A DNA stretch of 32,000 nt from Pyrodictium occultum. Lineage in GTDB: Archaea > Thermoproteota > Thermoprotei_A > Sulfolobales > Pyrodictiaceae. Position 1 is the first letter of the stretch; every line of letters begins with the position of its first letter. Location: NCBI RefSeq assembly GCF_001462395.1, contig NZ_LNTB01000002.1, positions 88,480 through 120,479 of the forward strand. The letters run 5' to 3'. Below are positions 1,644-23,873 of this stretch, piece after piece. The position numbers and the translations under genes are program-made. Below the pieces are notes generated by a model that saw nothing but the letters and a program-made list of their open reading frames with translations, searched no databases and was not told the origin of the DNA.

Positions 1644-1661
1644 AAAGGTGTAAGCAAGGAC

Positions 1662-4701: not shown

Positions 4702-4730
4702 AGTTCGTCATAGCCATTATATGACGAACT
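4702..4730 (+). terminator. Hairpin downstream of the 3727..4677 gene
   Basis: Perfect 11-bp inverted repeat agttcgtcata (4702-4712) / tatgacgaact (4720-4730) with the 7-nt loop gccatta, followed by T-rich ttgtgttg. It begins 25 nt after the TAA stop. Confidence 0.4.
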
Positions 4731-4904
4731 TTGTGTTGAGCCATGGAATATAAGAAAATGCTATTAATAGCTGCTACGGCTACAGTTATTGGACTTAAGG
4801 AGCTTGATTCTAGGAGTATTTTCTAAGCTGTCTGATCTTCTAACAAAGAATCGTCTCAAACGAGCTTAGAAAATTATACTTTAATGAAGCCCTAAGGAGG
4901 GGAA

Positions 4905-5057
4905 ATGCCGAACTCAGAAAAAGATTCTAGAAAAACATATAATCTATCTACAAGATTAGTGGATGCGTCGGAAGAAAAACACGGACCCATATTGATACGT
5001 TGTATTTGTTCTAAAAGGGCAAAAGATAGAGGAATCTTAGTGAGAGGGCTGATGTAG
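4905..5057 (+). CDS. Small ORF (50 aa) with a strong SD, unknown function
   Basis: AAGGAGGGG at 4894-4902 precedes ATG 4905. The product is MPNSEKDSRKTYNLSTRLVDASEEKHGPILIRCICSKRAKDRGILVRGLM, ending at TAG 5055-5057. It is below the ORF-track size cutoff and lies in an otherwise ~410-nt gap. Confidence 0.25.
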   Translation: MPNSEKDSRKTYNLSTRLVDASEEKHGPILIRCICSKRAKDRGILVRGLM

Positions 5058-5090
5058 GCATATACCTCGCTAAAAAGGGGAAAGCTAGCC

Positions 5091-5732: not shown

Positions 5733-5757
5733 TTTAAAAATTGAGGTACTTAGGGAA

Positions 5758-6963: not shown

Positions 6964-8456
6964 ATGATCTCGGTGATCGTAGTTTACAATGATGTAAGGA
7001 TACTAAACGAGTGGTTATTAGAGAGTTTGAAGAATCAAAGTGCAGATTATGAGCTTATAGCACTAGATAACAGGAAAGGCGATTTTCCTTCAGCTGCTAA
7101 TGCCTACAACTATGGAGGCTTAAGGGCACGTGGCGACTATCTAATGTTTGTTCATCAAGACGTAAGATTATTGGGGAATACTTGGATTGAGGAGGCGGAG
7201 AGAATTCTACGGAACTTGCCTAAGCTAGGTGCTGCAGGTGTGGCTGGAAAAAGATGTGATATTCGTGGAGTTATAACTAATGCTATTCATGGTGTTCCAC
7301 CGCGACCGGCTGGTCAGATAAGAATATCAAAACCTGTGAAGGTTCAAACGCTAGATCCCCTGCTTATAATTGTGCCGAGAAAAGTTTTCCAGAGATTAAA
7401 GTATGATGAACATACATGCAACGGATGGCATCTTTATTCCATTCCGAGGATTACTGCCTCACCTTACAAAGGGAGGGGTTCAACTGTTATGTGCTACCAC
7501 TTCCCGTTTATCATCGGTCAACAGGTGTAAAGCCGAAGAAAAGAAAACTCATTGACTACGGCCCTTATCCTGATGAATACTATGCGATACTTAAAAAAGT
7601 GTTAAGGAAGCATAGGCTCCATTACCGTAAGATATGCACGACTTGTGGGGACTACTATACATTTATACCTCTTTTTATCCAATTGACTCTGCCGAGAGTA
7701 ATGAAGACTATCTTCTTGAGACTGTTTGGATCAAGCTTACGGTTATTGATTAGGAGCTGGCTGCTCAGGAATTTCGTTACAGCCTACTTTACGGCCAAGT
7801 ATAGGAGGCTGTTGAGGGAGGGTGTAAGCTTAGATGACCTAATAGACTTTGCCTTTGAATTTGTTGGCCTACCACTAGTAAAGTCTCACCAATTGTCGGA
7901 TATCGACCTTATCAACGCGTTAACCATAAGGCCTGCCCAAGTAAAGGAGGAAATCCGAGAATTCCTGAGCATACTGCAGAAAATAAGACCTAAAATCATT
8001 CTGGAGATAGGCACTGAGCGAGGGGGGACACTATTCCTGCTCAGCCAGGTAGCGGATGAAGATGCCACACTCATATCCATAGACTTACCATGGGATAACC
8101 GAGCATCCAAAGGCCATAGCTTCGGCTTCAGCTATCCACCATGGAGAGAGAAACTTTACAGGTCATTTGCTAGGGGCAATCAGAAAATATATCTCCTAAG
8201 AGGGGATTCACACTCGCAAGCGACCCTAATGGAGGTCAAAAGAATCCTCAGAGGGAGAAAACTGGACGTCTTATTCATAGATGGGGATCATACTTATGAG
8301 GGTGTTAAGAAGGATTTTGAAATGTATTCTCCACTAGTTAAAAAAGGAGGTATAATAGCTTTCCACGACATTGTCCCACACCTGCCTGAAACCGGTTGTG
8401 AGGTAAACAAATTCTGGAACGAGATTAAGAATAACTATAAATATCTCTTGAGATAG
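6964..8456 (+). pseudogene. GT2 glycosyltransferase fused to a class I SAM methyltransferase, broken by a 1-nt frameshift near 7432-7446
   Basis: Frame 1 reads MISVIVVYND...LIALDN...GDYLMFVHQDV (DxD-like)...DEHTCNGWHLY. The GT2 sequence then continues in the -1 frame as (F)HSEDYCLTLQREGFNCYVLPLPVYHRS. The switch lies in the T-rich tract ctttattcc. The downstream part has the MTase motifs ILEIGTERGGTLFLL and LFIDGDHTYEGVKKDFEMYSPLVKKGGIIAFHDI. ATG 6964 directly follows the TAA (6961-6963) of the preceding gene. Confidence 0.7.
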
Positions 8457-8495
8457 TTTGAGGATTGGAACCAGAAGTGGGCGGAGATAGGTGTC

Positions 8496-9182
8496 TTGTG
8501 TCATGTATCTGTACTAGAGTTCTTTATTGAATACGCGAGAGCAGAGGAGTTTAAGGGTAAAAAGGTATTAGAGGTTGGAAGTAGATATGTTAATGGAAGT
8601 GTGCGTCCGTTGATTGAGAAATATTTCCAACCTAAAGAATACATTGGAGTGGATATAGAGCCCGGTAAGTTTGTAGACCTGGTGTTGCCTGCTGAAAGGC
8701 TCCTAGAATACTTTGGCCCGGAATCTTTTGACGTGGTGATTAGTACGGAGTTGCTTGAGCACGTCGTTGATTGGAGGCTTGTAGTAAATAACATGAAGGG
8801 TGTGCTGAAACGTGGGGGATACATTTATATCACGACTAGATCTAGAAGTTTCCCTTATCATGCCTATCCTTACGATTTCTGGAGATATGAAATTGAGGAC
8901 ATGAAAAGGATCTTCGCTGATTTCAACATTATAAAATTAGAAAAGGATCATCAGGCTCCTGGGGTCTTTCTTAAGGCCAAGAAGCCAGAGAACTATGTAC
9001 CAGCTGACTTGTCGAACATAGCGCTTTACTCTATAATATTAGGGAGGAGAACAAGAGACATTCCAGATATTGGCGATGCTCCACTTATTAGGAGGCTTAT
9101 CCTTAGACTATTAAGTTCTAAGGCCAAGTGGCTACTGCCAGGAGGCTTATTACGTCTCATAGAAAAGAAAATCGTGGTTTAA
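8496..9182 (+). CDS. Class I SAM-dependent methyltransferase (Methyltransf_11-like)
   Basis: TTG start. Motif I is KVLEVGSRYVNGS, followed by YIGVDIEPG, FDVVISTELLEHVVDW and LKRGGYIYITTRS. It lies in the same frame as the upstream MTase, separated only by TAG 8454-8456. Confidence 0.8.
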   Translation: MCHVSVLEFFIEYARAEEFKGKKVLEVGSRYVNGSVRPLIEKYFQPKEYIGVDIEPGKFVDLVLPAERLLEYFGPESFDVVISTELLEHVVDWRLVVNNMKGVLKRGGYIYITTRSRSFPYHAYPYDFWRYEIEDMKRIFADFNIIKLEKDHQAPGVFLKAKKPENYVPADLSNIALYSIILGRRTRDIPDIGDAPLIRRLILRLLSSKAKWLLPGGLLRLIEKKIVV

Positions 9183-9344
9183 GTACTTAGTTCTTTATCA
9201 AAGAATCGTTGTTATATTAGGCTTATCCACAATATAAAATTTAATTTATTCAAGCTTCACAATTTATTTTATCTACCAGCAAGCTATCAAAACGCTAAAA
9301 TAGGAGAGTAGAATATTATCTAAGAACGTAAGTTAAAGATTAGT
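9183..9344 (+). promoter_or_regulatory. AT-rich intergenic region, probable promoter for the downstream plus-strand gene string
   Basis: 162 nt of very AT-rich non-coding DNA with several TATA-like runs (aatataaaatttaatttatt, gaatattatc), immediately upstream of the sulfotransferase start. Confidence 0.35.
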
Positions 9345-10009
9345 TTGGGTGCGAAGGAATTGAAGACAATAATTGTTCTGGGGATGGGTAGGTCTGGAAC
9401 CTCGATGGTAGCTGGGATTCTGCACATACTCGGGGTTAACATGGGCGAGAGGCTCCTCGGGGCCCACTGGTCCAACCCTCTAGGCCACTTCGAGGACCTT
9501 GACTTCGTCGAGTTGAACGAGGAGATCCTGAGGGCGGCCGGTGGGAGCTGGGACAACCCCCCGGCCCGGGAGGCGATCCTGGCGGTCGCCCCACGCTTCT
9601 ACGATAGGATAAGGCCGCTCGCGGAGGAGGAGAGGAGGAGGCACGAGGTGTGGGGCTGGAAGGATCCCAGGACCTCCCTCACCGTGGAGCTGTACCTCCC
9701 CCACCTCGAGAACCCCTACTTCATAGTGTGCCACCGCGACTGGGAGGCTATAGCGCGCTCCCTCAAGAGGAGGGATGGGATGAGCATAGAGAGGGGGTCT
9801 GGCTGGCCAGGGTGTGCTATGAGAGGGTTGAGGAGTTCTTCAGGGAGCACCCGGGCCTCAGAAGACTGGACGTTCGCTACGAGGACTTCATAGCCGGCCC
9901 GGAGGCTCACGTCAGGAGGATAGCCTCGTCCATAGGCCTGGAGCCCGGTGAGGAGAGGATCAGGAGGGCCACTGCCTTCGTGCTCTCCCCGGGGAGAGGG
10001 AGAGGCTAG
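9345..10009 (+). pseudogene. PAPS-dependent sulfotransferase family protein, frameshifted in a G5 tract (9793-9797)
   Basis: The 5'-PSB-like loop is IIVLGMGRSGTS and the 3'-PB-like region is WKDPRTSLTVE. ORF 9345..9893 reads ...RRDGMSIERG. The homologous continuation VWLARVCYERVEEFFREHPGLRRLDVRYEDFIAGPEAHVRRIASSIGL is in the frame of ORF 9650..10009. Adding one G to the G5 run restores a single ~221-aa ORF. An alternative start is TTG 9360 (MKTIIVLG). Confidence 0.75.
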
Positions 10010-10133
10010 TCAGGAGGATGAGGAGGGAGGAGATGGCCCGAAGGATCGTCAGGGGCTTGACGAACCCGAGGAAGGCGCTCAGGTACATTATGGGGAGGCT
10101 CCTGGGGAGAAGGTAGCCGGCTCACGGCCCCCG

Positions 10134-10139
10134 TTTATA
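10134..10139 (+). promoter_or_regulatory. Possible TATA box upstream of rmlA
   Basis: tttata in an otherwise GC-rich spacer, about 40 nt upstream of TTG 10177. Confidence 0.3.
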
Positions 10140-10176
10140 CCCTGCCCGCCGCCCTGCCTCCCCCGGGGGCTCAGCG

Positions 10177-11253
10177 TTGGGCGGCGGCGTTAGGGGCCTG
10201 GTTCTTGCGGGCGGCGAGGGCACGCGGCTTAGGCCGCTGACCCTCGCCATGCCTAAGCATTTGGTGCCCCTGCTGGGTAGGGCTATGATTGAGTACCCCA
10301 TCGGGCACCTGGTGGAGGCTGGGGTTAGGGATGTTGGTGTTGTGGTCGGCTACCTGGGCCACTTGATCACGGGCTACCTGGGTGATGGGTCTAGGTATGG
10401 GGCCAGGTTCACGTACATAAGGCAGGGGGAGAGGCTTGGGATAGCGCACGCTATACACCTGGCCGTCGAGGAGGGCTTCGTGGATGGGCCCTTCGTTGTC
10501 TACCTTGGTGACAACATACTCGCCGGGGGGGTACGGGGGTTCCTGGAGAGGTTCCTGGAGGAGGAGCCGGACGTGCTCATACTCCTCTCCAGGGTCAGGG
10601 ATCCCGGGAGGTTCGGCGTCGCGGTCGTCAGGGACGGCAGGGTCGTGCGGCTGGTGGAGAAGCCGAGGGAGCCCCCCTCAAACCTCGCCCTGATAGGGGT
10701 CTACTTCTTCAGGGACCCCGACCTGGTGGAGAGGGCCTTCACGGCCCTCAAGCCTTCGTGGAGGGGTGAGTACGAGGTCACGGACCTGATACAGTGGTTC
10801 ATAGACAACGGGTACAGGGTCGACTACGACGTAGTAAACGGCTGGTGGAAGGACGTCGGGACCCCCGAGGGGCTCCTCGAGGCGATATACCTCCTCCTGG
10901 ACGAGTCCAAGCCCAGGATTGACGGGGAGGTCGCGGGGGAGGTCGTGGGGAGGGTTATAGTGGAGGAGGGCGCCGTAGTCGAGGGGAGGGTCTACGGGCC
11001 GGCCTACATAGGCCGGGGGGCCCGCATAGGCGGGGAGGCTGCGGTCGAGCACTACGTGTCCATAGAGAGCGGGTCCAGGGTGCTCTCGGGCTCCATATCG
11101 AGGTCGCTCATAATGAGCGACAGCGTCATAGACGTCAAAAGGCTTAGGCTCGTTGACAGCGTTGTGGGCCAGGGCTCCATCGTGAGGGCCTCCAGGGAGA
11201 TACACGGGGAGATCAGGCTGGCGATATCGAATTACAGCCGGGTCGAGATATAG
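10177..11253 (+). CDS. rmlA: Glucose-1-phosphate thymidylyltransferase-type sugar nucleotidyltransferase (long archaeal form with a C-terminal left-handed beta-helix)
   Basis: It has the GGEGTRLRPLT motif, then PKHLVPL and LGIAHAI. The C-terminus has hexapeptide-repeat character (VIVEEGAVVEGRVYGPAYIGRGARIGGEAAV...). It is clustered with rmlD and rmlC. Confidence 0.8.
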   Translation: MGGGVRGLVLAGGEGTRLRPLTLAMPKHLVPLLGRAMIEYPIGHLVEAGVRDVGVVVGYLGHLITGYLGDGSRYGARFTYIRQGERLGIAHAIHLAVEEGFVDGPFVVYLGDNILAGGVRGFLERFLEEEPDVLILLSRVRDPGRFGVAVVRDGRVVRLVEKPREPPSNLALIGVYFFRDPDLVERAFTALKPSWRGEYEVTDLIQWFIDNGYRVDYDVVNGWWKDVGTPEGLLEAIYLLLDESKPRIDGEVAGEVVGRVIVEEGAVVEGRVYGPAYIGRGARIGGEAAVEHYVSIESGSRVLSGSISRSLIMSDSVIDVKRLRLVDSVVGQGSIVRASREIHGEIRLAISNYSRVEI

Positions 11254-11268
11254 CGCCGATACTGGAGT

Positions 11269-12306
11269 ATGCGCGGTGACGTCGGCTGGAGGGGTGGCTT
11301 GGTGAGGGTCCTAATCACGGGTTGCGCGGGCTACATAGGCACAACGCTCACCCCATACCTCCTCAGGAGGGGCTACGAGGTCAGATGCGTCGACAAGCTA
11401 ATCTTTGGGAGGGATGTCGTAGAGCACGTGCTAGGTGAGAGGGGGTTCGAGCTTGTAGAGGCCGACGTGAGGAGCGTAGACCCCCAGGTTCTCAGCGGGG
11501 TCGACTGCGTGGTGGACATGGCCGCCATACCTAACGACCCCGCGGGGGACCTCAACCCCGAGCTCACGCTCTCCATAAACTACAGGGGCAGGGCTAGGAT
11601 GGCATCCATGGCGAGGGAGAGGGGGGTCCCCTGCTATGTCCTATTCTCCAGCTGCAGCGTCTACGGGAGGCAGGAGGGGCCCGTCGACGAGGCCGCGGAG
11701 CCCAGGCCGCTGACAGTCTACGCCAGGGCCAACCTCCTAGCGGAGAGGGCCGTTCTCCCCCTCGCCAGCGAAGGGTTCACCCCCGTGGCCCTCAGGCTAG
11801 CTACAGTCTACGGGCCATCGAGGAGGATGAGGTTCGACCTCGTAGTCAACGCTATGACCCTCTCAGCCTACCGGGAGGGGAGGATATACGTCGAGGGCGA
11901 CGGGATGCAGGAGAGACCCCTAGTACACGTCCTAGACGTGGCTAGGGCCGTGGAGAGGGTGCTGGAGGCCGTGGAGAGGGACCCAGACCCCCTCAAGGGC
12001 CAGGTAATCAACATCGGCTCGGACGAGCAGAACTACAGGATAATCGAGATAGCTAGGATAGTGCGCGGGATAGTCGGGGGCGAGATAGTCTTCCGGGGCG
12101 AGGTTGACAGGAGGAGTTACAGGGTCAAGTTCGGGAGGGCTAGGAGGCTACTCGGCTTCCAGCCACTCTACACAGTGGAGGATGGAGTCAAGCAGGTATA
12201 CCACGAGCTCCTCACGGGGAAGCTGAAGCCCGAGCCCCGCTGGATAACGGTTCAGTGGTATAGGGAGCTACTCTCCAGGAACCCGGAGGTGCTGCTAAAG
12301 TGGTAG
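11269..12306 (+). CDS. Extended-SDR NAD-dependent epimerase/dehydratase with Y-x3-N in place of the catalytic Y-x3-K
   Basis: It has VLITGCAGYIGTTL (GxxGxxG) and SSCSVYG, but the active-site segment reads YARANLLAE (AAC Asn where Lys is expected). The likely true start is TTG/GTG at 11299/11302 (MRVLITG). It occupies the position where rmlB is often found, but lacks the RmlB hallmarks I know. Confidence 0.7.
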   Translation: MRGDVGWRGGLVRVLITGCAGYIGTTLTPYLLRRGYEVRCVDKLIFGRDVVEHVLGERGFELVEADVRSVDPQVLSGVDCVVDMAAIPNDPAGDLNPELTLSINYRGRARMASMARERGVPCYVLFSSCSVYGRQEGPVDEAAEPRPLTVYARANLLAERAVLPLASEGFTPVALRLATVYGPSRRMRFDLVVNAMTLSAYREGRIYVEGDGMQERPLVHVLDVARAVERVLEAVERDPDPLKGQVINIGSDEQNYRIIEIARIVRGIVGGEIVFRGEVDRRSYRVKFGRARRLLGFQPLYTVEDGVKQVYHELLTGKLKPEPRWITVQWYRELLSRNPEVLLKW

Positions 12307-13193
12307 CCCTGGTCACGGGGGTCAGCTCCTCCCCGGGCTACAAGGCCGCCCTCTCCCTCGCCCGCAGGGGGGTCGAGGTGGTCGGAGTCTATAACCAGCA
12401 TCCCGTCAGAGTTAAGGGTGTGGAGACCATTAGGAGGGACCTCACCCGGGACGCCCGCGGGCTCGTGAGGGAGTACAAGCCCGACGCCGTGGTGCACACC
12501 GCCGCTATGGGAAACGTCGACCTCTGCGAGGAGGATAGAAGCGCCTGCTACAGGGTGAACGTTGAGGCGACTAGGGAGCTCCTCAGGGAGGCCTACAGGC
12601 TCGGAGCCAGGATAGTCTACCTCTCGACGGACTACGTCTTCGACGGGGCGAGGGGGCTCTACAGGGAGGAAGACACGCCCTCCCCCGTCAACTTCTACGG
12701 GCTCACCAAGCTCCTAGGAGAGGAGGCGGCGCTAGCCCTCGGGGGCGTAGTGGCCAGGACCTCAGCGGTCTACGGCGTGGGCCCGGGGAGGCCCAACTTC
12801 GGCAAGGTTGTGGTCGAGAAGCTCATGCGAGGAGAGCGGGTGAGAGCCTTCACAGACCAGTGGCTCTCCCCCACGCTCAACACCCTCCTAGGCGAGGCCC
12901 TCGCAATGCTGGCGGTCGAAGCCGACTACGAGGGGATACTACACGTGGCCGGCCCCCGGATGAGCAGGTACGACTTCGCCGTCGCAGTAGCCAGAGCCTT
13001 CGGCCTAGACGAGGGGCTCATAGAGCCCGCCTCGATGGATAGCGTGGACTTCAAGGCTCCAAGGCCCAGGGATAGCAGCCTTGACTCCTCCAAGGCCTCA
13101 AGAATGCTGGGGCTAAGGCTCAACGACCTAGGCCACGCGCTCAGCCTATTCAAGAGAGAGCTTCGCGGCGAGACGGGCCAGCCCCCAACTTAA
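12300..13193 (+). CDS. rmlD: dTDP-4-dehydrorhamnose reductase
   Basis: STDYVFDG, YGLTKLLGE (YxxxK) and an N-terminal Rossmann fold (VALVTGVSSSPG). GTG start at 12300 overlaps the upstream TAG (12304-12306). Confidence 0.85.
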   Translation: MVALVTGVSSSPGYKAALSLARRGVEVVGVYNQHPVRVKGVETIRRDLTRDARGLVREYKPDAVVHTAAMGNVDLCEEDRSACYRVNVEATRELLREAYRLGARIVYLSTDYVFDGARGLYREEDTPSPVNFYGLTKLLGEEAALALGGVVARTSAVYGVGPGRPNFGKVVVEKLMRGERVRAFTDQWLSPTLNTLLGEALAMLAVEADYEGILHVAGPRMSRYDFAVAVARAFGLDEGLIEPASMDSVDFKAPRPRDSSLDSSKASRMLGLRLNDLGHALSLFKRELRGETGQPPT

Positions 13194-13220
13194 ATCCTCC
13201 GGGAACCCCGAGCCGTTCTG

Positions 13221-13802
13221 GTGGTGTATGCCTTGCCGTTCAAGTCCTTCAAGCGGCTCGGGATCCCCGACGTGGTACTGGTCGAGCCCGTGGTCTTCCC
13301 CGATGAGAGGGGCTTCTTCGCGGAGCTCTACAAGAGGACCCCATTCCTCTCCGAGGGGATCCCCTACGACTTCGTCCAGGTGAACCTGAGCAAGTCGAGG
13401 AGGGGCGTCGTCAGGGGGCTGCACTACCAGCTCAGGCCGATGGAGCAGGGTAAGCTGGTCACGGTCCTCCGGGGCAGGATCCTGGACGTTGCAGTGGATA
13501 TCAGGAGGGGGAGCCCGTGGTATGGGAGGTACGTGGCTGTCGAGCTGGCCGCCAACGAGCCCAGGCTGCTCTGGGTGCCCCCAGGCTTCGCCCACGGGTT
13601 CCAGGCGCTCGAGGACGACACCCTGGTACTATACCTGGTGACCAAGGAGTACAGCCCCGAGCACGAGCGCTGCATCAAGTGGGACGATCCGGACATAGGC
13701 GTGGACTGGCCCATAAAGGAGGGCGTCCTGCTCAGCGAGAAGGACCAGAGGTGCCCGCCGCTGCGCGGGGCGGAGACGAACTTCGAGTACCCCGGGGGCT
13801 AG
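13221..13802 (+). CDS. rmlC: dTDP-4-dehydrorhamnose 3,5-epimerase
   Basis: FPDERGFFAELY, RGLHYQ, GKLVTVLRGRILDVAVDIRRGSPWYG, WVPPGFAHGF and KWDDPDIGVDWP. Confidence 0.9.
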   Translation: MVYALPFKSFKRLGIPDVVLVEPVVFPDERGFFAELYKRTPFLSEGIPYDFVQVNLSKSRRGVVRGLHYQLRPMEQGKLVTVLRGRILDVAVDIRRGSPWYGRYVAVELAANEPRLLWVPPGFAHGFQALEDDTLVLYLVTKEYSPEHERCIKWDDPDIGVDWPIKEGVLLSEKDQRCPPLRGAETNFEYPGG

Positions 13803-13933
13803 TGCCCCCGGACAGCGGTCTTGCCGCGGCTGTTGCTGCCGGCGTTGCTGTGCGGCTTCCCTTGCTGCTACCGCTGCTGCCCTGCGGGGGCTGTCCGGCG
13901 GGGGTGGTGGCGTTCTCGTGGCCCCGGGGCGTC

Positions 13934-13954
13934 TTTAATGATATTTAATTAATG
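13934..13954 (+). promoter_or_regulatory. AT-rich island (TATA/BRE candidate) for the RHH-sat-NPP transcription unit
   Basis: tttaatgatatttaattaatg is a conspicuous 21-nt A+T block in ~67 % GC DNA, 35-55 nt upstream of the RHH start at 13989. Confidence 0.5.
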
Positions 13955-13988
13955 CCTCGTCCTCCCCGGGGCTGCGGGGTTTGGGGTC

Positions 13989-14234
13989 TTGGCCTCCGGC
14001 GGCTCTGGCGGCAGGAGGGGGAGGTACACTACTGTCTCTATACCGGTCTCCCTCTACGAGCGGATCCAGAGGCTTATCGAGGGGACGGGGTTCACCAGTG
14101 TGTCCCAGTTTGTGACGTATGTGCTGCGGGAGGTTGTGGCGGAGATGGAGGAGGAGAGGCTGAGGAGCGGGGAGGTTGGTGAGGAGGAGAAGAAGGCTAT
14201 TCTCGAGAGGCTTCGGAGGCTTGGCTACCTGTAG
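13989..14234 (+). CDS. Ribbon-helix-helix (CopG/Arc/MetJ-type) DNA-binding protein
   Basis: The beta-strand plus two helices read TTVSIPVSLYERIQRLIEGTGFTSVSQFVTYVLREVV. The tail is acidic and ends ...ILERLRRLGYL. TTG start; the exact start is uncertain because there is no in-frame ATG. Confidence 0.7.
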   Translation: MASGGSGGRRGRYTTVSIPVSLYERIQRLIEGTGFTSVSQFVTYVLREVVAEMEEERLRSGEVGEEEKKAILERLRRLGYL

Positions 14235-14242
14235 CCCTCCTA

Positions 14243-15421
14243 TTGGCGGGGTGGTGTGGTGTGGTCTCGCGTCCTCATGGGGGTAGGCTTGTGGACAGGG
14301 TTGCCCGGGGTGGGTCGAGGGAGAGGCTGCTGCGGGAGGCTCTGGAGATGCCCAGGCTGGAGGTTGGCGGGGGCTTGGCTGCGGATGCCGCTAATATCGC
14401 GCATGGGGTTTATAGCCCGTTGGATGGCTTCATGGTGCAGGAGGATTACCTCTCGGTGCTGCATGATATGAGGCTTAGCAGTGATGTGCCGTGGACTATC
14501 CCGATTGTGCTTGATGCTTCTCCGGGCGAGCTGGCGGGGGTTAGGGAGGGTGATGAGGTTGCCCTCTTCTACCGTGGTGAGCCGCTGGCGGTGCTCCGGG
14601 TTGAGGAGATCTATGGCTGGGACCGGAGGGAGCATGCCCTCAACGTGTTTAAGACCACTGACCCGGGGCACCCGGGCGTTGCCAGGCTTATGAGGAGGAA
14701 GGAGCTGTTCGTGGGCGGGCCTATCCTCCTCCTCCGGGACCCGCCGGAGCCTTTTGAGAGGGTGAGGCTCTGGCCCCGGGAGACGCGTGTGCTCTTCGAG
14801 GCCAAGGGCTGGAGGACTATAGCGGCTTTCCAGACGCGCAACGTGCCCCATCTAGGCCACGAGCATGTGCAGAAGGCCGCGCTCACCTTCGCCGACGGGC
14901 TGTTTGTGAGCCCTCTGGTGGGCTGGAAGAAGCCCGGCGACTACAGGGACGAGGTGATAGTTGAGGCCTACAGGGTGTTGCTGGAGAACTACTTCCCCAG
15001 GGAGAGTGTTGTATTCAGCGTGCTCAGGATGGAGATGAGGTACGCGGGGCCGCGGGAGGCGGTGCACCACGCGATAGTGAGGAAGAACTTCGGCGCAACC
15101 CACTTCATAGTGGGGAGGGACCACGCGGGGGTCGGGAGCTACTACGGCCCCTACGAGGCATGGGAGCTGTTCAGGGAGTTCCCGGACCTAGGGATAACCC
15201 CCCTCTTCGTCAGGGAGGCGTTCTACTGCAGAAAGTGCGGCCAGGTGGTCAACGAGAAGATATGCCCCCACGGCGAGGAGTACAGGGTGAGGATCAGCGG
15301 CACCAGGCTGCGGGAGATGCTCCGGAGGGGCGAGAGGCCGCCGGAGTACATGATGAGGCCGGAGGTGGCGGAGGTGGTCCTAAGGCACCCGGACCCCTTC
15401 GTGCCCGGGGACGAGAGGTGA
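14243..15421 (+). CDS. sat: Sulfate adenylyltransferase (ATP sulfurylase)
   Basis: PHGGRLVDR, FQTRNVPHLGHEH (the QTRNP-H-x-x-H motif) and HFIVGRDHAGVG..YYGPYEA. The likely true start is GTG 14261 (MVSRPHGG). Confidence 0.9.
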   Translation: MAGWCGVVSRPHGGRLVDRVARGGSRERLLREALEMPRLEVGGGLAADAANIAHGVYSPLDGFMVQEDYLSVLHDMRLSSDVPWTIPIVLDASPGELAGVREGDEVALFYRGEPLAVLRVEEIYGWDRREHALNVFKTTDPGHPGVARLMRRKELFVGGPILLLRDPPEPFERVRLWPRETRVLFEAKGWRTIAAFQTRNVPHLGHEHVQKAALTFADGLFVSPLVGWKKPGDYRDEVIVEAYRVLLENYFPRESVVFSVLRMEMRYAGPREAVHHAIVRKNFGATHFIVGRDHAGVGSYYGPYEAWELFREFPDLGITPLFVREAFYCRKCGQVVNEKICPHGEEYRVRISGTRLREMLRRGERPPEYMMRPEVAEVVLRHPDPFVPGDER

Positions 15422-16797
15422 GGGATGCGGGAGGGGTGCCGCGCCGCCTATTCCTCCTGGGGCTCGACTCGATGCCCCCGAGGGTCCTCTACGAGGGGAT
15501 GGACGGGGGCGGGTTCAGCTACCTCCGCCAGCTGCTGGGGGATGCGAGGCGCTACCGGCTGAGGAGCTGCCACCCGCCGATAACGGTGCCGGCCTGGATG
15601 GCCATGTTCACGGGGAGGACGCCGGGCGAGCTGGGGGTCTACGGGTTCAGGCACCGGAGGCCGGGCGAGTACGGCTACTACATAGTCGACGGCACGAGGA
15701 TACGACACCCGGCCCTATGGGACCTGGCGGGCCGCAGGGGGCTCCGGGCGGGCGTGTACGGCGTGCCCCCCACCTACCCGCCCCGCCCGGTCCACGGGTT
15801 CCTGGTCACCGACTTCACCACCCCGGGGCCGGAGAAGCCCTACACCTTCCCGCCCTGGCTCCGCCGCGAGCTGGAGCAGGCCGCCGGGGGGCCTCCAGTG
15901 TTCGACATAGTGTACCGGAGCGGCGAGAAGGACAGGGTGGCCAGGGACCTCTACGCGATGCTGGAGAGCCACCAGCGGCAGGTGGAGTACCTGGCGCTGA
16001 GGAAGCGCTGGGACCTATTCATATATGTGGAGATAGCCGTCGACAGGGCGCACCACGCCTTCTGGAGGTACTTCGACCCCGAGCACCCCCGGCACGAGGA
16101 GCACCCGGTGTACAGCAGGGTGATCCCCGAGCTCTACAGGAGGATAGACAGGTGGTTCGAGAGGCTCCACCGGAGGCTCCCGCGGGACACGGTGGTGGTT
16201 GTGGCGAGCGACCACGGCATCAAGGCTATGAGGGGCGCGTTCGCGGTCAACCAGTGGCTGGCCGAGCAGGGCTACCTCCGGCTGCGCGCCAGCCCCGGGG
16301 AGCTGAAGCCCGGCACGGAGCTCTCCGAGGACCTGGTGGACTGGGAGCACACGGTCGCCTGGGCCTGGGGAGGCTACTACAGCCGCGTGTTCATCAACCT
16401 ACGGGGCAGGGAGAAGAGGGGCGCGGTGGAGCCCAAGTACTACGAGGAGACGGTCGAGCAGCTCCGGAGGGACCTCGAGAGGATAAGGGGGCCGGGCGGC
16501 GAGCACTGGAGGAACACTGCCCTGCGCCCCGAGGAGGTCTACCCGGAGGTCAACGGGGACCCGCCGGACCTCATGCTCTACCTGGACGACCTCAACTGGA
16601 GGCCGGCGGGCACCCTGGGCTGGCCCAGCCCCTACCTGGAGGAGAACGACCGCGGCCCCGACGACGCCGTCCACGACTGGATCGGGGTGTTCGCTGTCTA
16701 CGACCCCGAGGGCACTGTGAGCCCCGGCGAGGCGGGGGTGATTGATATACACGGGGTGCGCGGCCTGCTGGAAGAGATAATATTCTCCAGGCGGTGA
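15418..16797 (+). CDS. Alkaline-phosphatase-superfamily enzyme, type I phosphodiesterase/nucleotide pyrophosphatase (NPP) family
   Basis: LFLLGLDS (metal-binding Asp), PPITVPAWMAMFTGRTPGELGVYGF (Thr nucleophile context) and VVVASDHG (DHG metal site). GTG 15418 overlaps the sat TGA (GTGA); an alternative start is GTG 15436. The ORF-track start at 15160 lies inside sat and is rejected. Confidence 0.75.
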   Translation: MRDAGGVPRRLFLLGLDSMPPRVLYEGMDGGGFSYLRQLLGDARRYRLRSCHPPITVPAWMAMFTGRTPGELGVYGFRHRRPGEYGYYIVDGTRIRHPALWDLAGRRGLRAGVYGVPPTYPPRPVHGFLVTDFTTPGPEKPYTFPPWLRRELEQAAGGPPVFDIVYRSGEKDRVARDLYAMLESHQRQVEYLALRKRWDLFIYVEIAVDRAHHAFWRYFDPEHPRHEEHPVYSRVIPELYRRIDRWFERLHRRLPRDTVVVVASDHGIKAMRGAFAVNQWLAEQGYLRLRASPGELKPGTELSEDLVDWEHTVAWAWGGYYSRVFINLRGREKRGAVEPKYYEETVEQLRRDLERIRGPGGEHWRNTALRPEEVYPEVNGDPPDLMLYLDDLNWRPAGTLGWPSPYLEENDRGPDDAVHDWIGVFAVYDPEGTVSPGEAGVIDIHGVRGLLEEIIFSRR

Positions 16798-16819
16798 GGC
16801 CCCCGGAGGGGTGGAGAGC

Positions 16820-17028
16820 ATGGGGGACAAGGTCTCCATAGAGATAAGCAGGGAGCTGTACGAGAAGGCCCGGAGGTTCATAGAGGAGCAGGGGGCTTCA
16901 GCAGCGTGGAGGAGCTGGTGGAGTTCCTGCTCCGCGAGGCCCTCGAGACCGGCGGGGAGGAGGAGGGGATGAGCAGGGAGGACGAGGAGCGGGTCAGGGA
17001 GAGGCTCCGCTCCCTGGGCTACCTCTAG
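16820..17028 (+). pseudogene. Second ribbon-helix-helix paralogue, frameshifted in a G5 tract (16891-16895); absent from the ORF track
   Basis: GGAGG/GGTGGAG SD precedes ATG 16820. The N-terminal frame gives MGDKVSIEISRELYEKARRFIEEQG. After the G5 run the -1 frame gives GFSSVEELVEFLLREALETGGEEEGMSREDEERVRERLRSLGYL, ending at TAG 17026-17028. This is colinear with the 13989 RHH protein (GFTSVSQFVTYVLREVV...ERLRRLGYL). One extra G restores a ~70-aa ORF. Confidence 0.7.
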
Positions 17029-17647
17029 CCCCCTCTCCCAGGGCCTCCAGTATCCTCGCGGCCAGCCTCTCCGCGTTCTCCTCCACAGTATTCCTCACCG
17101 TGTCGAGCACCAGGTCGGGGTTCTCGGGGGGCTCGTAGGGGTCGCTCACGCCGGTGAAGTGGCTTATCTCCCCGCGGAGGGCGCGGCGGTAGAGCCCCTT
17201 AGGGTCCCTCCTGATGCACTCCTCGAGGGGAGCGTGGACGTAGACCTCGAGGAAGGGGGCCTCCTCCTCGACTATCCTGCGGACCTCCCTCCTCACGTCG
17301 CGGTAGGGGGAGACGAAGCTGCAGACCACTATCACCCCATTCCGGGCCAGGAGCCGGGCTATCCAGGCGACGCGGAGGAGGTGGCGCCGCCTCTCCTCCC
17401 GCGTGTAGCCCGCGTCCGGGTTGATGGTCTTCCTCACCCAGTCCCCGTCCAGGACCTCGACACGGTAGCCCAGGGAGCGTAGCCTCTTAGCGGTAGCCAG
17501 GGCTATCGTGGTCTTGCCGCTCGCGGGGAGCCCGGTGAGCCACGCGACAACCCCGCGCTCCAGGCAGCGCATCCCCAGCCACCCTCCCAGCCCCGCGGGC
17601 CCCACGAGCTGGATAAGCCTCGCGCCCACAGCAAGGAGCCAGGCCAC
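16994..17647 (-). CDS. cysC: Adenylylsulfate (APS) kinase
   Basis: LTGLPASGKTT (P-loop), LDGDWVR, CSFVSPY, RDPKGLYRRA and FTGVSDPYEPP. The likely true start is ATG 17572 (MRCLERGVVAWLTG). Its 3' end overlaps the convergent RHH paralogue by ~35 nt. Confidence 0.9.
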   Translation of the reverse strand: MAWLLAVGARLIQLVGPAGLGGWLGMRCLERGVVAWLTGLPASGKTTIALATAKRLRSLGYRVEVLDGDWVRKTINPDAGYTREERRRHLLRVAWIARLLARNGVIVVCSFVSPYRDVRREVRRIVEEEAPFLEVYVHAPLEECIRRDPKGLYRRALRGEISHFTGVSDPYEPPENPDLVLDTVRNTVEENAERLAARILEALGEGARGSPGSGASP

Positions 17648-17803
17648 AATAAGCCGGAGAGGTGATGGGGGGCAGCAGGGAGAGCTGGCATCCAGCCTCC
17701 GGCTCCGCCCCTCGGCGCAGGCCTTGGCGCCGCTCGCCCACCGGGCGCTCGGGTGGGGGCTTCTCCGCTCTTGCTGGCCGAGATGGGCTCCAAGCCATTA
17801 TAG

Positions 17804-18820
17804 ATGGCGTGGGTGATGTATAGCCCTGCATCCCCGGGGGGCTGTGGGTGTGGCCTGGGCTTGGCCGTGCTAGTCACGGGCGGCGCTGGGTTCGTCGGGA
17901 GGCATGTAGTGGGGCTGCTGCTCGAGAGGGGCTACGAGGCTGTTGTGGTGGACAACCTCTACTCCCCGGGCTCGGCTGGGGCCGCCATGCGCCTCCGCTG
18001 GCTGGGTGCGCGGGTTGTCTGGGGTGACGTCTCCCGCTGGGAGACCCTGCTCCACGCCGTGGGGGAGGCTGGGCTGGGGCGGGGCGACGTCGAGGCCGTG
18101 GTCCACCTGGCCGCGGTGGTGGGCGTCGAGGAGGCATGGGGGAGGCCGCGGCTGGCGCTGGAGGTGAACGTAGAGGGTACGCTGAACGTGCTGGAGCTGG
18201 CCCGGCTCCTCGACGCGGAGAGGATTGTCTACGCCAGCAGCGCGGCGGTCTACGGGGAGCCCAGGTACCTCCCCATCGACGAGAACCATCCCCTGGAGCC
18301 GGTCAGCCTCTACGGCTGGTCGAAGCTCGCCGGGGAGACCCTGCTCTGGCAGTACCAGCGGGCCTACGGGCTCAGGCCGGCCGCGCTCCGCCTGTTCAAC
18401 GTCTACGGGCCCGGGATGAGGCCGGGCCCCTACGCGGGCGTGGTGTACAGGTTCATAGAGGCGCTTCTCCGCGGGGAGCCGCCGGTGGTCTACGGCGACG
18501 GCGAGCAGACCCGGGACCTCGTCTACGTGGGGGACGTGGCTGAGGCCATGCTCCGGGCGGTAGAGGCGGGCTACACGGGCCCAGCCAACATAGGCACCGG
18601 GAGGGAGACCAGCATAAACCAGCTCTACAGGATGCTCTGCAGCCTCCTGGGCGGGGGCTGCCCGGAGCCGCTCCACAAGCCCCCGAGGCCGGGGGATGTT
18701 AGGAGGAGCGTAGCCTCAATCAGGCTGGCGGAGGAGAAGCTCGGCTGGAAGCCCAGGACAGGCCTGGAGCAAGGCCTAAGGGAGACGATCAAGTACTATA
18801 GGGGGCGCGTAGAGCCGTAG
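17804..18820 (+). CDS. NAD-dependent sugar epimerase (GalE-like extended SDR)
   Basis: VLVTGGAGFVGRH, YASSAAVYGEP, YGWSKLAGE (YxxxK), FNVYGPG and GDGEQTRDLVYVGDVA. The likely start is further in, TTG 17858 or GTG 17864. Confidence 0.8.
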   Translation: MAWVMYSPASPGGCGCGLGLAVLVTGGAGFVGRHVVGLLLERGYEAVVVDNLYSPGSAGAAMRLRWLGARVVWGDVSRWETLLHAVGEAGLGRGDVEAVVHLAAVVGVEEAWGRPRLALEVNVEGTLNVLELARLLDAERIVYASSAAVYGEPRYLPIDENHPLEPVSLYGWSKLAGETLLWQYQRAYGLRPAALRLFNVYGPGMRPGPYAGVVYRFIEALLRGEPPVVYGDGEQTRDLVYVGDVAEAMLRAVEAGYTGPANIGTGRETSINQLYRMLCSLLGGGCPEPLHKPPRPGDVRRSVASIRLAEEKLGWKPRTGLEQGLRETIKYYRGRVEP

Positions 18821-18965
18821 ACAGGGCAGACGCCGGGTCGAACGAGAGTAGCCCAGCGCCGCCGGCCACCTCGAAGGACACGTGAACGTGGAGCACCCTG
18901 GCCGCCACGGTGCCTGCACCCCTGCCCGCGGGGGCCAGCCCTCACGGCTCCCCGCAGGGCCCCTC

Positions 18966-20454
18966 CTATGGCTTCAGGAGCTGTAGCCTCCGTAGCCTCC
19001 TGAATAGGCTTGTGTAGTTGGCCTTTCCGGCCGCGTTGAGCCCTGTGGCGAAGGCGTCTGCCAGAGGCCTGCCATCCGTGTCGTGGGGTAGTGGGAGCCC
19101 GAGGTACGCTAGTATGGTGGGTGTGATGTCGTAGATGGAGGCTCTCCTCTCCTCGCCGGCGGGCGGGGCGGATACCTCATCCCCCGCCAGGGCTACTAGC
19201 GCGTGCTGCTCGTGGACGCCCATATACCCCTTGTGGAGCGGCTCTGCATGTATGTTCGCGTCGAAGAACACGTCGGGCCCCGGTATGAGGAGTAGGCTGG
19301 GCGCCCTCTCCACGTAGGGCCCCCAGAAGACCTCGTCCCGCGAGGCTATGCCCCGTATCTGGCTGATGCCCTGCAGTGCCTGGCGCACGGCGCCGCAGTA
19401 GCCCCTCCTCACGTACACCCCCAGGTTGCCCGTCTCGAGCATGAAGGCCCTGCTTGTGGAGTAGTTCACCTCCACCTGTAGAGGGATCAGTGGCCTTATC
19501 CTCTTCAGGAGGCTTCTCGGTATAAGCCTCCTCGCCAGCCGGAGGAGGGGGCGTATTCTGGAGCCCCGGGCGCTGCTGGGGGAGCTGCCGCTGCCCGGCT
19601 CCGTGGCGCTGTGCTCTGCCCCCCCGGGCCACGTGGTACCGGTAGTCTATCAGGCCCCTGTCTGCGAGGATGCTGTTTACACCCACGAGCACGCGTGCGA
19701 CGCGGAAGCCGTGATCGCTCGCGAGTATAAGCAGGCTGCACTCGCCGCTAGCTTTACGGACAAACCTGTCTATCATCGATGCGATCCTGTAGACTCTATG
19801 CATTTGCCTGCCCTCGACTATGTCCGGGATCCTGTGCATGAGCCAGTCGAGCTCGCTGAACACTATGACGAAGAGGCTGTAGTCCTCCTTCTCGAGCAGG
19901 TCATAGTAGATGTTTAGCCTCTTCTCGAGAAACTCCTCAACCATCTTCACATAGGAGTCTGTGTCGGCGGCCCTGCTCCACTGGTGGGGAGGCTCGACCA
20001 GGTACTCGGAGTACCTGGCCTCATAGCCTCTAGGGTGGATGAACTGCCGGGGGGAGGACCAGTCGCTGACGAGTACAAGGTTCCGGGCCGCGAGGAGCTG
20101 GGATACGGGGTAGGTTAGGGGCACGTTTATGACGACGCTCCTAAGCCCCTTCATGGCGGCTATCTCGAACACGCGCGGGTACATGACGTCGCGGGACGAT
20201 GCCACGCGGATACTGAAGCCCTCTTCGCCCTGCTCGACCACGTAGAAGCCGAATATGCCGTGCTTCCCGGGGTTCACCCCGGTGAATATGCTCGTCCAGG
20301 CGGGGGGCGTGTAGGGAGGGATCGAGGGAGCGGGGGAGGCGAAGCCCTTGCCGGCTATGCTGGATAGCGCGTTGAGCGGGATACTCTCCAGCATGGTCTT
20401 AAGGTTGCCTGGCCCGACGCCGTCGAGGCCTATTAGGCATACACGTTTAGCCAA
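18966..20454 (-). pseudogene. Second NPP-family (alkaline-phosphatase superfamily) paralogue, frameshifted in a G7 tract (plus-strand C7 at 19619-19625)
   Basis: TTG start preceded by an AGGTGGTG SD. Motifs are CLIGLDG, IPPYTPPAWTSIFTGVNPGKHGIFGF and LILASDHG. The sensible sequence ends at ...DYRYHVARGG and resumes in the frame of ORF 18966..19475 as AEHSATEPGS...VEVNYSTSRAFMLETGNLGVYV...IYDITPTILAYLGLPLPHDTDGRPL. A G6 tract (one G fewer) would give one ~495-aa ORF. Confidence 0.75.
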
Positions 20455-20606
20455 CTACACCACCTTACTGCTGGTACCGCAGCCCTCTCCGGCATTGGCT
20501 TCCAGAGGGGCGGCGGGATCGCCCAGTCCTTAAATCTGCTTCATCAAGCCCCGCCGCCGGGGGATAGCGGCTGAGGGCTCCATAGCCCCGGGGGGATGCG
20601 GCTGGG

Positions 20607-21605
20607 ATGAAGCGGCTGGTGTTCGTCGCCTGGGCGCGGCTTAGCCGGAGGACGCGCGACCTCGCCCGGGCCCTTGGGGCCGGGCTGCTGTTCCTCCGGG
20701 ATAGGCCCCCCTACATCCGCGCCTGGAGGGAGACCGCCAGGGCGCTGGAGGAGGCCAGGCCGGACGCCGTGGTCGTGCAGCTGCCGCAGGGGCCGCTGCT
20801 CCTCCGCGTGGCCACGCTGGCCGGGCGCCTCGGCTTCCGGGTCGTGGCCGACGTGCACACCGGGTTCCTCGTCTACAGCTCGCCGGCGGGGCTCCTGCTC
20901 AACCGGCCCTTCCGCGGGCTCCTCCGCCGCGCCGACCTGGTGCTGGCCCACAACGAGCCCGAGGCGAGGCTGCTGGGGAGGGCCGGGCTGCCGGGGGAGA
21001 GGGTGCTGGTGGTCTACGACCCCCTGCCCCGGCCCCCGGCTAGGCTGGAGAGGCCAGCCCTAGACCTCGGCGACGGGGGGTACATCCTCGTCCCGGCCTC
21101 CTGGGCGCCCGACGAGCCCCTGGAGCTCGTGGCCAGGGGCTTCCTCGCATCAGGGGCCCCCGGGGGCTACAGGCTCGTGGTGACCGGGGATCCGGGGAGG
21201 AGGCCGGGGCTCCACCGGAGGCTGAGGAGGCTGGCCCGGGAGAGCCGGGGCTCCATAGTGCTCACCGGCTTCCTCCCCGAGCCCCAGTACGCCTGGCTCC
21301 TCAGCCACGCCGCCGCCGTGGTGGCGGCTACGACGAGGGAGTACACGATGCTCTCGGCGGCCTGGGAGGCGGTGGCCTACCGGAAGCCCCTCCTAGCATC
21401 CGCGACGGGGACGCTGAGGGAGGTGCTGGGGCCGGGCTACCCCTGCCTCTTCCCCCCGACCGTGGAGGGGGTGGCGGAGGCCATCGACAGGTGCCTCTCC
21501 GGGGGCCCCGGGGTCGCGGAGGCAGTCGAGGAGACCCTGGAGAGGCTGAGAAGGATGTCGACGGGGAGCCTGGAGAGGCTGGCCAGGATCCTCGAGAGGC
21601 TCTAG
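20607..21605 (+). CDS. GT-B fold glycosyltransferase (divergent, GT4/GT1-like)
   Basis: 332 aa with a two-domain Rossmann-like layout. The C-terminal half reads YILVPASWAPDEP...LVVTGDPG...IVLTGFLPEPQY...AAVVAATTREYTMLSAAWEAVAYRKPLL. The assignment rests on general pattern only. Confidence 0.5.
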   Translation: MKRLVFVAWARLSRRTRDLARALGAGLLFLRDRPPYIRAWRETARALEEARPDAVVVQLPQGPLLLRVATLAGRLGFRVVADVHTGFLVYSSPAGLLLNRPFRGLLRRADLVLAHNEPEARLLGRAGLPGERVLVVYDPLPRPPARLERPALDLGDGGYILVPASWAPDEPLELVARGFLASGAPGGYRLVVTGDPGRRPGLHRRLRRLARESRGSIVLTGFLPEPQYAWLLSHAAAVVAATTREYTMLSAAWEAVAYRKPLLASATGTLREVLGPGYPCLFPPTVEGVAEAIDRCLSGGPGVAEAVEETLERLRRMSTGSLERLARILERL

Positions 21606-22861
21606 GCGTGGCGCTGCCGGCCGCCCTCCTCTAGCAGCCTTGCGGCTAGCTCCAGGTAGCTCCTCGCCACCGTTCTACGGTTGAGCCTGCTGCGCCAGAA
21701 GGAGGCTATCTCGCCTGGGTCGTACTCCCCGGCCTCCCAGCGCTGGACATCTGTCAGCAGGGCGGCGAGGAGGGCCTTCTCGCTGAAGTCGGGGGCTAGG
21801 GTCCCGGAGAAGCCTCCCCCGGTTAGGTACATGAGGCTCTCGATGGGGGTCCCCACTATGCTGCAGCCCATCGACACCGCCTCCGCGGCGGCTATGCCGA
21901 AGCTCTCCCAGTTGGAGGGCATGAAGAGTATCCTGGCCTCGCCCAGGTGCCTGACCAGCTCGCCGTGTGGGACCCGGCCGAGAACACTGATGGAGGGGGC
22001 GGGGTCCCCTCTGCAGGCCTCCGCCATGTACCTCCTGACCGTCTCCTCCCCGGGCCCTATCACCGCGGCCTCGTAGTCCGGCATGGCCCTGGCGAAGCTG
22101 CAGAGCACCCGGGCCAGGGTGCCGGTGTTCTTCGCCACGTCATGCCATCTGCCGACAGCCACTATCTTCCTCTTCTTCCTCGCCGGTATAGGGGCCCTCG
22201 CTATATCATCTGCCACGGGGTTGGGTATGAAGTGGATCTTCCCGGTTAGGTCCGGCCTGCCCCAGTACACTAGGATGTACGCCAGGTTGGCCTTGGCCTG
22301 CGGGGACTCGAGGACCAGGGCGTCGGCGGCCTCCAGGTGCGGTATTATTCTTCTGGGGAGCGTCCTCAGCCTAGCTATGGTCTTCTCGGCCAGTGCTCTC
22401 AGCGGGCCGGGCATGTGCCTCAGCAGCTTGCCGACCTTCCTGGTGCGGTAAACGCTCCTGGGGAACGCGGGGTAGCATAGCCTGCCGTCTATATCCCCCT
22501 TCACTATGACCTTCTTCCCGGCCTTCTTCAGCGCGGCTATTATGGGCAGGTAGGGTCTTCCAAGCCACGTGTAGATGATGACTACGTCGTAGGGTGTGCT
22601 GCGCCAGTACTCTGGCCGGGACGCCTCCCCCGCCTGCACGAACCTGAGCGGGATCTGCTGGTAGCCCCTGAGGCTAGGCTTCTCCACCGTTATCAGCTCT
22701 GCCTCCACGCCCAGGTCGTTCAGCCCCAGCACTATCTGCCCAGGGTCCTTGACCTCCCAGGCGGGCTCGTACCGGTCGAAGTACACACCTATCCTCACGC
22801 CGCTACTATTCAACTCCCTCCACTCTCCCGGCCGCCCCTGGGCACCCGGTGCAGGCCCCAT
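21602..22861 (-). CDS. GT4-family glycosyltransferase
   Basis: The EX7E region is MPSNWESFGIAAAEAVSMGCSIVGTP, with ILFMPS upstream. The likely start is GTG 22798 (MRIGVYFDRYEP). Its stop overlaps the stop of the convergent 20607 gene by 4 nt. Confidence 0.8.
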   Translation of the reverse strand: MGPAPGAQGRPGEWRELNSSGVRIGVYFDRYEPAWEVKDPGQIVLGLNDLGVEAELITVEKPSLRGYQQIPLRFVQAGEASRPEYWRSTPYDVVIIYTWLGRPYLPIIAALKKAGKKVIVKGDIDGRLCYPAFPRSVYRTRKVGKLLRHMPGPLRALAEKTIARLRTLPRRIIPHLEAADALVLESPQAKANLAYILVYWGRPDLTGKIHFIPNPVADDIARAPIPARKKRKIVAVGRWHDVAKNTGTLARVLCSFARAMPDYEAAVIGPGEETVRRYMAEACRGDPAPSISVLGRVPHGELVRHLGEARILFMPSNWESFGIAAAEAVSMGCSIVGTPIESLMYLTGGGFSGTLAPDFSEKALLAALLTDVQRWEAGEYDPGEIASFWRSRLNRRTVARSYLELAARLLEEGGRQRHA

Positions 22862-22870
22862 AGGGGCCGG

Positions 22871-23845: not shown

Positions 23846-23873
23846 CGCCCCCTCCCGGGCCCCCTGGGCGTGG

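Follow-up and report, generated by a model that had tools for sequence, protein, structure and literature searches.

Three genes in a 32,000-nt stretch of DNA (called the window hereafter, at its full length) from a strain-variable surface-glycan cluster of Pyrodictium, probably P. occultum PL19, are broken by small frameshifting changes at short G/C runs, and we consider it likely that genuine slippage mutations made pseudogenes of them in an ordinary and recurrent process of gene loss. The three accessory genes encode a sulfotransferase (ST; 9360-10116, + strand), a small CopG/RHH-like protein of the sat/cysC cassette (RHH2; 16820-17029, + strand) and an AlkP-superfamily type I phosphodiesterase (NPP2, PF01663; 18966-20454, - strand). 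An earlier reading of the same letters, referred to below as the original prediction, had located frame breaks at 9793-9797, 16891-16895 and 19619-19625, and three-frame translation, homologs and conspecific sequences all place them there. Its count of three disruptions was incomplete, since all three are present but a second ST frameshift at 9987-9994 had been missed. In ST, RHH2 and NPP2 alike, homology continues in another frame beyond the break and intact full-length homologs occur elsewhere, as expected of frameshift pseudogenes. Besides changes of ±1 at short G/C runs, the lesions include one that can be described as a 2-nt AG unit or, equivalently, as the loss of 1 nt. The further claim that every break falls in a sulfation module applies to ST, which is a consumer of 3'-phosphoadenosine 5'-phosphosulfate (PAPS), and to RHH2 through its cassette, but NPP2 is linked to sulfation by position only.

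Conspecific comparison relied on Logan assemblies of four public runs (DRR667394, DRR667393, SRR5453782 and ERR15087784), with identities of 99.5-99.9%; a literature search with the four accessions returned nothing. The first conspecific lead came from the NPP2 search as a 292-aa Logan protein that is in frame across the C7 site of the window. A 54-kb contig of DRR667394 is syntenic with the window, at 99.53% identity over 13234-30073 and 96% over 9375-11254; the other three runs provided shorter contigs, that of SRR5453782 matching 4.3 kb of the window at 99.88% identity. At the lesion sites of the window the conspecific lengths are in frame, with one to three samples per site, all agreeing with one another. 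These assemblies have frameshifts of their own at other places in ST and NPP2, which indicates that frameshift pseudogenes of these two genes do occur in independently sequenced samples.

Reconstruction of ST across three frames yields a protein of 252 aa that matches Sulfotransfer_3 (PF13469) with 52 bits (cutoff 27; E=1.4e-13) over profile positions 2-213 of 216, and the aligned homologs (P0002-P0070) back both frame changes. The closest of them, P0002, comes from a different organism, has the same length and is 55% identical. The first lesion (9788-9797, + strand) is an (AG)3 overlapping G5 that leaves the frame off by -1/+2; the shift lies inside AGGGGGTCTGG near 9793-9797, where the homolog pattern IE-x-G-[IVM]-x-LA supports the reconstruction. 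DRR667394 reads (AG)2 followed by the same G5 and stays in frame with one codon fewer than the family has, so that the predicted need for G6 is one simple description of the site and the conspecific (AG)2 with G5 an equally simple one. The second lesion (9987-9994, + strand) affects a C4G4 within CCCCGGGG and is 1 nt short, DRR667394 having C5 where the window has C4. Downstream, the third-frame C-terminus ERERLVRRMRREE...RYIMGRLLGRR matches P0002, with ERERLVRRMRREEMARRIVRGLTNPRKALRYIMGRLLGRR aligning to EKERLIKKMKRKK...PWKALRFIRKRFLS of that protein. A further site at 9455-9462 (+ strand) is intact in the window, where CTCCTCGGGG stands against CTCC-GGGGG in DRR667394 and DRR667393, and the 1-nt loss at 9457 in both runs constitutes their own ST frameshift.

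The window and DRR667394 also differ in ST outside these lesions. A C6 tract at 9557-9562 (+ strand), in frame in the window, is replaced by C11 in DRR667394 (+6 nt overall); this C11 (L081, approximately 20463-20473) is in frame and inserts Pro-Arg, and it is the sole tract of the locus that is plausibly long enough for hypermutability. Substitutions in ST between the two strains are 5 nonsynonymous and 2 synonymous, against 22:31 in the intact genes, these being small numbers, and their density is about three times that of the intact genes. Regarding the 5' end, a low-GC island terminates at 9375-9390, inside ST at about codon 10, where both the step in GC content and the start of similarity to DRR667394 are found. 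The 5' end of ST is accordingly chimeric and low-GC in the window (MKTIIVLGMG...), and native and GC-rich in DRR667394 (...VAVLGMH...). At codon 10 (9387-9389) the 5'-phosphosulfate-binding loop reads GMGRSGTS in the window and GMHRSGTS in all homologs and in the conspecific allele; the change arrives with the chimeric 5' end and might by itself impair the enzyme.

In NPP2, the window lesion at 19619-19625 (- strand) is a + strand C7, or coding-strand G7, that is C6 in DRR667394 and SRR5453782, where the frame runs on to the natural C-terminus; of the in-frame lengths of six or nine proposed in the original prediction, six is therefore the one found in relatives. Both halves of the gene are covered by full-length homologs at 45-52% identity, the region at the lesion being variable among them. 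Another site, at 20049-20058 (- strand), is intact in the window (GGGGGGAGGA) and bears a 2-nt deletion (GGGGGGGA), mapping to window position 20055, in all four other samples. A third one, at 19227-19230 (- strand), is C4 in the window and SRR5453782 and C3 in DRR667394 only, where the change at 19230 adds a second NPP2 frameshift. When the N-terminal part of NPP2 from the window is joined to the remainder from SRR5453782 the product is a complete protein (P0243), which implies that the ancestral NPP2 was intact and that at least two lineages lost it independently. Two genes thus hold more than one lesion each, namely ST of the window with two and NPP2 of DRR667394 with two. Compensating pairs of frameshifts were considered and rejected, given that the ST lesions of the window sum to -2, and those in NPP2 of DRR667394 sum to -3 and lie 825 nt apart. 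NPP2 and the intact NPP1 are both PF01663 AlkP-superfamily proteins; NCBIfam yielded no family for ST, NPP1 or the RHH proteins, and for NPP2 only a far sub-threshold match to PhnA.

The RHH2 break consists of a G5 at 16891-16895 (+ strand) which splits MGDKVSIEISRELYEKARRFIEEQG from GFSSVEELVEFLL, while more than 40 RHH2 orthologs read FIEEQGGF in a single frame. A G6, the length that had been predicted to restore the gene, is present in three conspecific samples and gives an intact 68-aa product. Around 80 RHH2 homologs of 67-89 aa are intact, several of them named CopG family regulator in their sources and two distant ones matching PF01402. Their Gly-Gly tract is interrupted in most orthologs (GGA GGC or GGC GGG), and the G-tract is thus not conserved. 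RHH2 itself had no match in Pfam or NCBIfam, and a PDB sequence search with it was uninformative. Its AF2 model (pLDDT 82) shows an extended N-terminal segment and, after it, helices at 11-24, 30-46 and 52-65, and the best Foldseek matches were RHH proteins (NikR, ParD and CdbA), all with E above 1 and non-significant.

Whereas these accessory genes decay, the synthesis of PAPS appears to be kept. The core cassette at 13952-17647, comprising RHH1, sat, NPP1 and cysC, contains zero indels between strains and 9 substitutions (4 nonsynonymous and 5 synonymous). Since the genes for PAPS synthesis (sat and cysC), NPP1 and RHH1 are all intact, the losses concern consumer and accessory genes. Among the loci fetched (L001-L080), two RHH-like paralogs with about 38% mutual identity flank sat in most of those from Desulfurococcales, an arrangement that makes RHH2 part of a conserved sulfate-activation cassette. 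An AlkP-family phosphodiesterase and APS (adenosine 5'-phosphosulfate) kinase often accompany the RHH-sat pair in Desulfurococcales loci.

Two lesions of another kind occur in the low-GC half of the window. An in-frame TAG at 1110-1112 (+ strand) interrupts a GT4 glycosyltransferase gene at a site with no homopolymer, and on read-through the Glycos_transf_1 match crosses the stop and gains in score, from 87 to 115 bits. Likewise, a 5-bp tandem duplication, ATTCC ATTCC, at 7436-7445 (+ strand) frameshifts a gene for a GT2-methyltransferase fusion (GT2_5-rhamnosyl-O-methyltransferase); deletion of one ATTCC copy restores a single open reading frame (ORF) of 495 aa with a longer Glyco_tranf_2_5 match, from 50.7 to 60.1 bits. 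Neither the TAG nor the duplication can be a homopolymer miscall, which argues that the cluster is genuinely eroding in this strain.

The distribution of indels along the locus bears on the origin of the breaks. Between the window and DRR667394 we counted 11 frameshifting indels and 3 in-frame ones. Seven of the 11 fall within the coding sequences of ST, RHH2 and NPP2, well inside them; intergenic DNA accounts for three, at 17663, 18927 and 29484 (the last 16 nt upstream of the CDGSH start codon), and the remaining one, at 29079, changes the last two codons of a 140-aa ORF. In the other 17 genes aligned between the two there are none. This clustering does not reflect an excess of runs in the affected genes, because the density of runs of at least 5 is 4.0 per kb in ST and 6.0 per kb in NPP2 and falls within the 4-16 per kb of the other genes. 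Out of 31 G/C runs of at least 6 in the window, 27 have the same length in DRR667394, and the four that vary comprise one in ST, two in NPP2 and one that is intergenic. In simulations that placed indels at random over G/C runs, the probability of 7 indels falling in three genes or fewer was 0.005-0.008, and that of at least 3 of the 4 window-specific indels striking two genes independently broken in relatives was 0.003-0.007. Such a distribution is characteristic of real mutations that selection has filtered, and not of random miscalls.

The original prediction had also allowed that runs and breaks coincide by chance in DNA of this base composition. That explanation is excluded, as the conspecific comparison pins the indels to runs and these cover just about 4% (runs of at least 5) or 10% (runs of at least 4) of the GC-rich part. 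The location of all four window-specific indels in runs points to slippage, either in the cell or in the sequencer. The latter origin, according to which the four 1-nt discrepancies of the window are homopolymer miscalls in an organism whose genes are intact, would agree with all four being restricted to the window, with in-frame lengths in relatives, and with the annotation of the probable source, which was announced with 3,360 genes for 1.6 Mb, an oddly high number (PMC4767911). This figure of 3,360 protein-coding genes is about twice the expected one and, a typographical error aside, could mean that ORF splitting is widespread in that annotation. Sequencing errors, however, would have had to skip about 350 runs in 17 other genes and strike mostly the two genes that are also broken in relatives, with the low probability given above. 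They would also have had to go in both directions, three of the changes being -1 and one +1, in a cluster that contains a nonsense codon and a 5-bp duplication as well, and in genes whose frameshifts in relatives recur over independent runs and are therefore sometimes real. Illumina MiSeq at high depth seldom miscounts runs of G5 to G7. The draft of P. occultum PL19, the probable source, was obtained with this platform (22.5 M pairs, assembled with SPAdes) as two contigs totalling 1.6 Mb, the largest of 1.5 Mb, with 63.4% GC (PMC4767911). Taken together, the gene-specific placement and the probable platform leave the miscall explanation improbable.

A reversible switch was the other possibility raised in the original prediction, in which the short G/C tracts would act as contingency loci that turn glycan sulfation on and off through slipped-strand mispairing. 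The affected genes are indeed glycan-modification genes, tract lengths at each window site differ from those of conspecific samples, and ST and NPP2 have been hit repeatedly at minimal divergence, one locus (L083) showing 2 substitutions and 2 NPP2 indels in 4.3 kb. As the lengths differ among relatives, the finding of one fixed out-of-frame length that had been put forward as refuting a switch was not made outright; it is other evidence that counts against switching. ON alleles were found in none of three samples for ST and in none of five for NPP2, and the 90%-identity clusters of a 15-billion-protein collection contained no full-length ST or NPP2 of this species, all members being fragments. 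Return to function would require two reversions in ST of the window, and likewise in NPP2 of DRR667394, and several lesions go beyond a simple slip in a tract: the -2 loss of an AG, a complex TC-to-G change, and the TAG and 5-bp duplication of the low-GC half. The ON tracts would be only 5-6 nt long (G6 in RHH2, C6 in NPP2, C5 at the second ST site, and G6 or (AG)2 at the first), and the indel variability of simple sequence repeats (SSRs) increases steeply as the repeats get longer (PMC3315296). In four of four other samples the G7 run that the 2-nt deletion produces in NPP2 has one and the same length, and three samples agree on the G6 of RHH2, whose tract orthologs do not conserve. The lesions lie 36-83% into the ORFs and hence not close to the 5' end, and of the 31 runs that are as long or longer, 27 do not vary. 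We therefore regard a programmed switch as having little chance of being correct. Hyperthermophilic archaea are described in PMC4471258 as having no MutS/MutL homologs, with short-run frameshifts prominent in Sulfolobus acidocaldarius, a point that could be taken to favour switching; frameshifting of this type in the absence of MutS/MutL, as that source presents it, also explains the indel-rich divergence without any programmed switch.

A further explanation would be that the split genes are still expressed, either by programmed ribosomal frameshifting or by transcriptional slippage at the runs. A precedent for such recoding in archaea is the split alpha-fucosidase gene of Saccharolobus solfataricus, which is expressed by programmed -1 frameshifting; apart from this precedent, no observation supports recoding of the genes considered here. 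No canonical slippery heptamer is present at any lesion site, the frameshift is not conserved, these sites being in frame in conspecific alleles, its direction varies among sites, and ST would require two recoding events. Recoding is thus very hard to credit.

The loss of accessory genes through slippage, which we favour, may be envisaged as follows. Among the spontaneous mutations of hyperthermophilic Crenarchaeota, replication slippage at short runs would be prominent, and purifying selection would clear the resulting indels from genes that are needed, so that they persist where a gene can be spared or its loss is an advantage. ST and NPP2 would have been lost repeatedly and independently across lineages of the species, with the PAPS-synthesis core remaining under selection. 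The lesions of the window would accordingly be present in the cells, and the losses of ST, NPP2 and RHH2 would be effectively irreversible; we infer that their cause lay in relaxed selection or in selection for a change of the glycan.

Several observations weigh against this reading. The alleles of the window were seen in no other sample, exact look-ups of its proteins gave no match, and its tract lengths are those of the assembly; the argument drawn from the MiSeq platform depends on a source genome that was itself identified by inference. The RHH2 break is confined to the window, the gene being whole in about 80 other genomes and three conspecific samples; it also fits a sequencing error, and among the candidates for an artefact it is the most suspicious. 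As to NPP2, it differs between strains by 3 indel events against 1 substitution, a high ratio for which hypermutability or selected switching would be other explanations, and the C11 tract in ST of DRR667394 is long enough to be hypermutable; both features would suit phase variation. A more speculative proposal, which we hold to be doubtful, is that the repeated knock-outs of ST and NPP2 at near-zero substitution divergence reflect selection on surface sulfation, such as escape from viruses or from attachment, and that short G/C runs in a hyperthermophile poor in mismatch repair might serve as a low-rate contingency mechanism at the population level, comparable in an archaeon to the phase variation of glycans in bacteria and possibly involving hypermutable tracts like C11.

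Comparison with known systems helps to situate the pseudogenes of Pyrodictium. Bacterial contingency loci have long tracts, typically of 7-8 nt or more, together with mixed ON and OFF alleles in populations, one tract per gene and a tract that is kept across strains. The Pyrodictium locus resembles the poly-G/C loci of Campylobacter, Neisseria, Haemophilus and Helicobacter (PMC8355987, PMC5084427, PMC3025981) in having frameshifts at G/C homopolymers of glycan-modification genes and tract lengths that vary between close relatives. It departs from them in its tracts of 4-7 nt, the lack of any ON allele of ST or NPP2, the double lesions and the unconserved tract of RHH2. Spontaneous frameshifts of ±1 at short mononucleotide runs have been described in S. 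acidocaldarius (Grogan, Carver and Drake 2001, as related in PMC4471258), likewise a hyperthermophilic crenarchaeon, and the prominence of 1-nt indels in short runs in that account is what we assume as the mutational input. Those events were selected in the laboratory in one reporter gene, in contrast to the natural, fixed strain differences of Pyrodictium, which have been filtered by selection.

Recurrent loss of function is known from the population genomics of strain-variable bacterial glycan and O-antigen clusters. The similarity to the latter lies in the independent inactivating lesions of the same accessory glycan genes in conspecific lineages, next to horizontally exchanged low-GC islands and mosaic rml genes; the differences are that Pyrodictium is an archaeon growing at about 105 °C and that the step affected is glycan sulfation. 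These results add a small data point on the erosion and diversification of surface-glycan clusters in hyperthermophilic archaea, in which islands are replaced, rml genes are mosaic and sulfation-related genes are lost recurrently. They also call for caution in annotation, since the split ORFs belong to a single ST, a single NPP and a single RHH gene that have become pseudogenes, and are not separate small genes. To our knowledge, glycan phase variation driven by SSRs is not established in archaea, and for this reason the significance would be larger if tract heterogeneity were seen at the level of reads.

Concerning the general layout, bases 1-9340, at about 42% GC, carry genes for glycosyltransferases and methyltransferases, whereas the GC content of bases 9341-32000 is 63-76%. 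A PDB sequence search with a P-loop ORF of the first part (5091-5732) was uninformative. In the GC-rich part, annotated by Pfam profile search, ST is followed on the + strand by rmlA (10177-11253), an rmlB-like gene (11269-12306), rmlD (12300-13193) and rmlC (13221-13802). Next come the intact genes for the small protein RHH1 (13952-14182, + strand), ATP sulfurylase (sat; 14243-15421, + strand) and the AlkP-family phosphodiesterase NPP1 (15436-16797, + strand), and, past RHH2, the likewise intact gene for APS kinase (cysC; 16994-17647, - strand). An epimerase/dehydratase gene (17804-18820, + strand) separates the latter from NPP2, beyond which lie more glycosyltransferases, a UDP-sugar dehydrogenase, a GFO-family oxidoreductase, a HAD hydrolase, a CDGSH protein and a MatE transporter. 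At 29074-29085, a G5 in the window gives an ORF of 140 aa ending in ...EVRGR, and a G6 in DRR667394 one of 150 aa ending in ...EVRGALKRPQRLSVRLLESSFLKP; no homologs of this ORF were present in the fetched loci.

The nearest relatives of sat among GTDB genomes, which were used as an outgroup and for showing the conserved RHH-sat cassette, are Pyrodictiaceae metagenome-assembled genomes with at most 87% identity. A scan of JGI metagenomes with sat returned no near relative, the best match having 80% identity.

Upstream of ST, DRR667394 carries an island (L089, 1-10000) different from that of the window (1-9390, 42% GC against 65-70%), with 36-47% GC and genes for a sulfatase, a methyltransferase, a polysaccharide deacetylase and GT1/GT2 enzymes; the low-GC islands of both look like strain-specific, horizontally exchanged glycan islands. 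Within the rml genes, the window at 11040-13234 has only about 40-70% nucleotide identity to DRR667394 in the rmlB-like gene and rmlD, against 96-99.5% in the flanks, with breakpoints at the 3' end of rmlA and the 5' end of rmlC. Judged from this pattern of identity, the divergence looks like a xenologous replacement through recombination. Finally, the locus of DRR667394 (L089, 7080-7564) includes two short ORFs of 85 and 76 aa, the latter with a match to RmlD_sub_bind, which look like rmlD remnants in the island and would mean regional decay in another strain.

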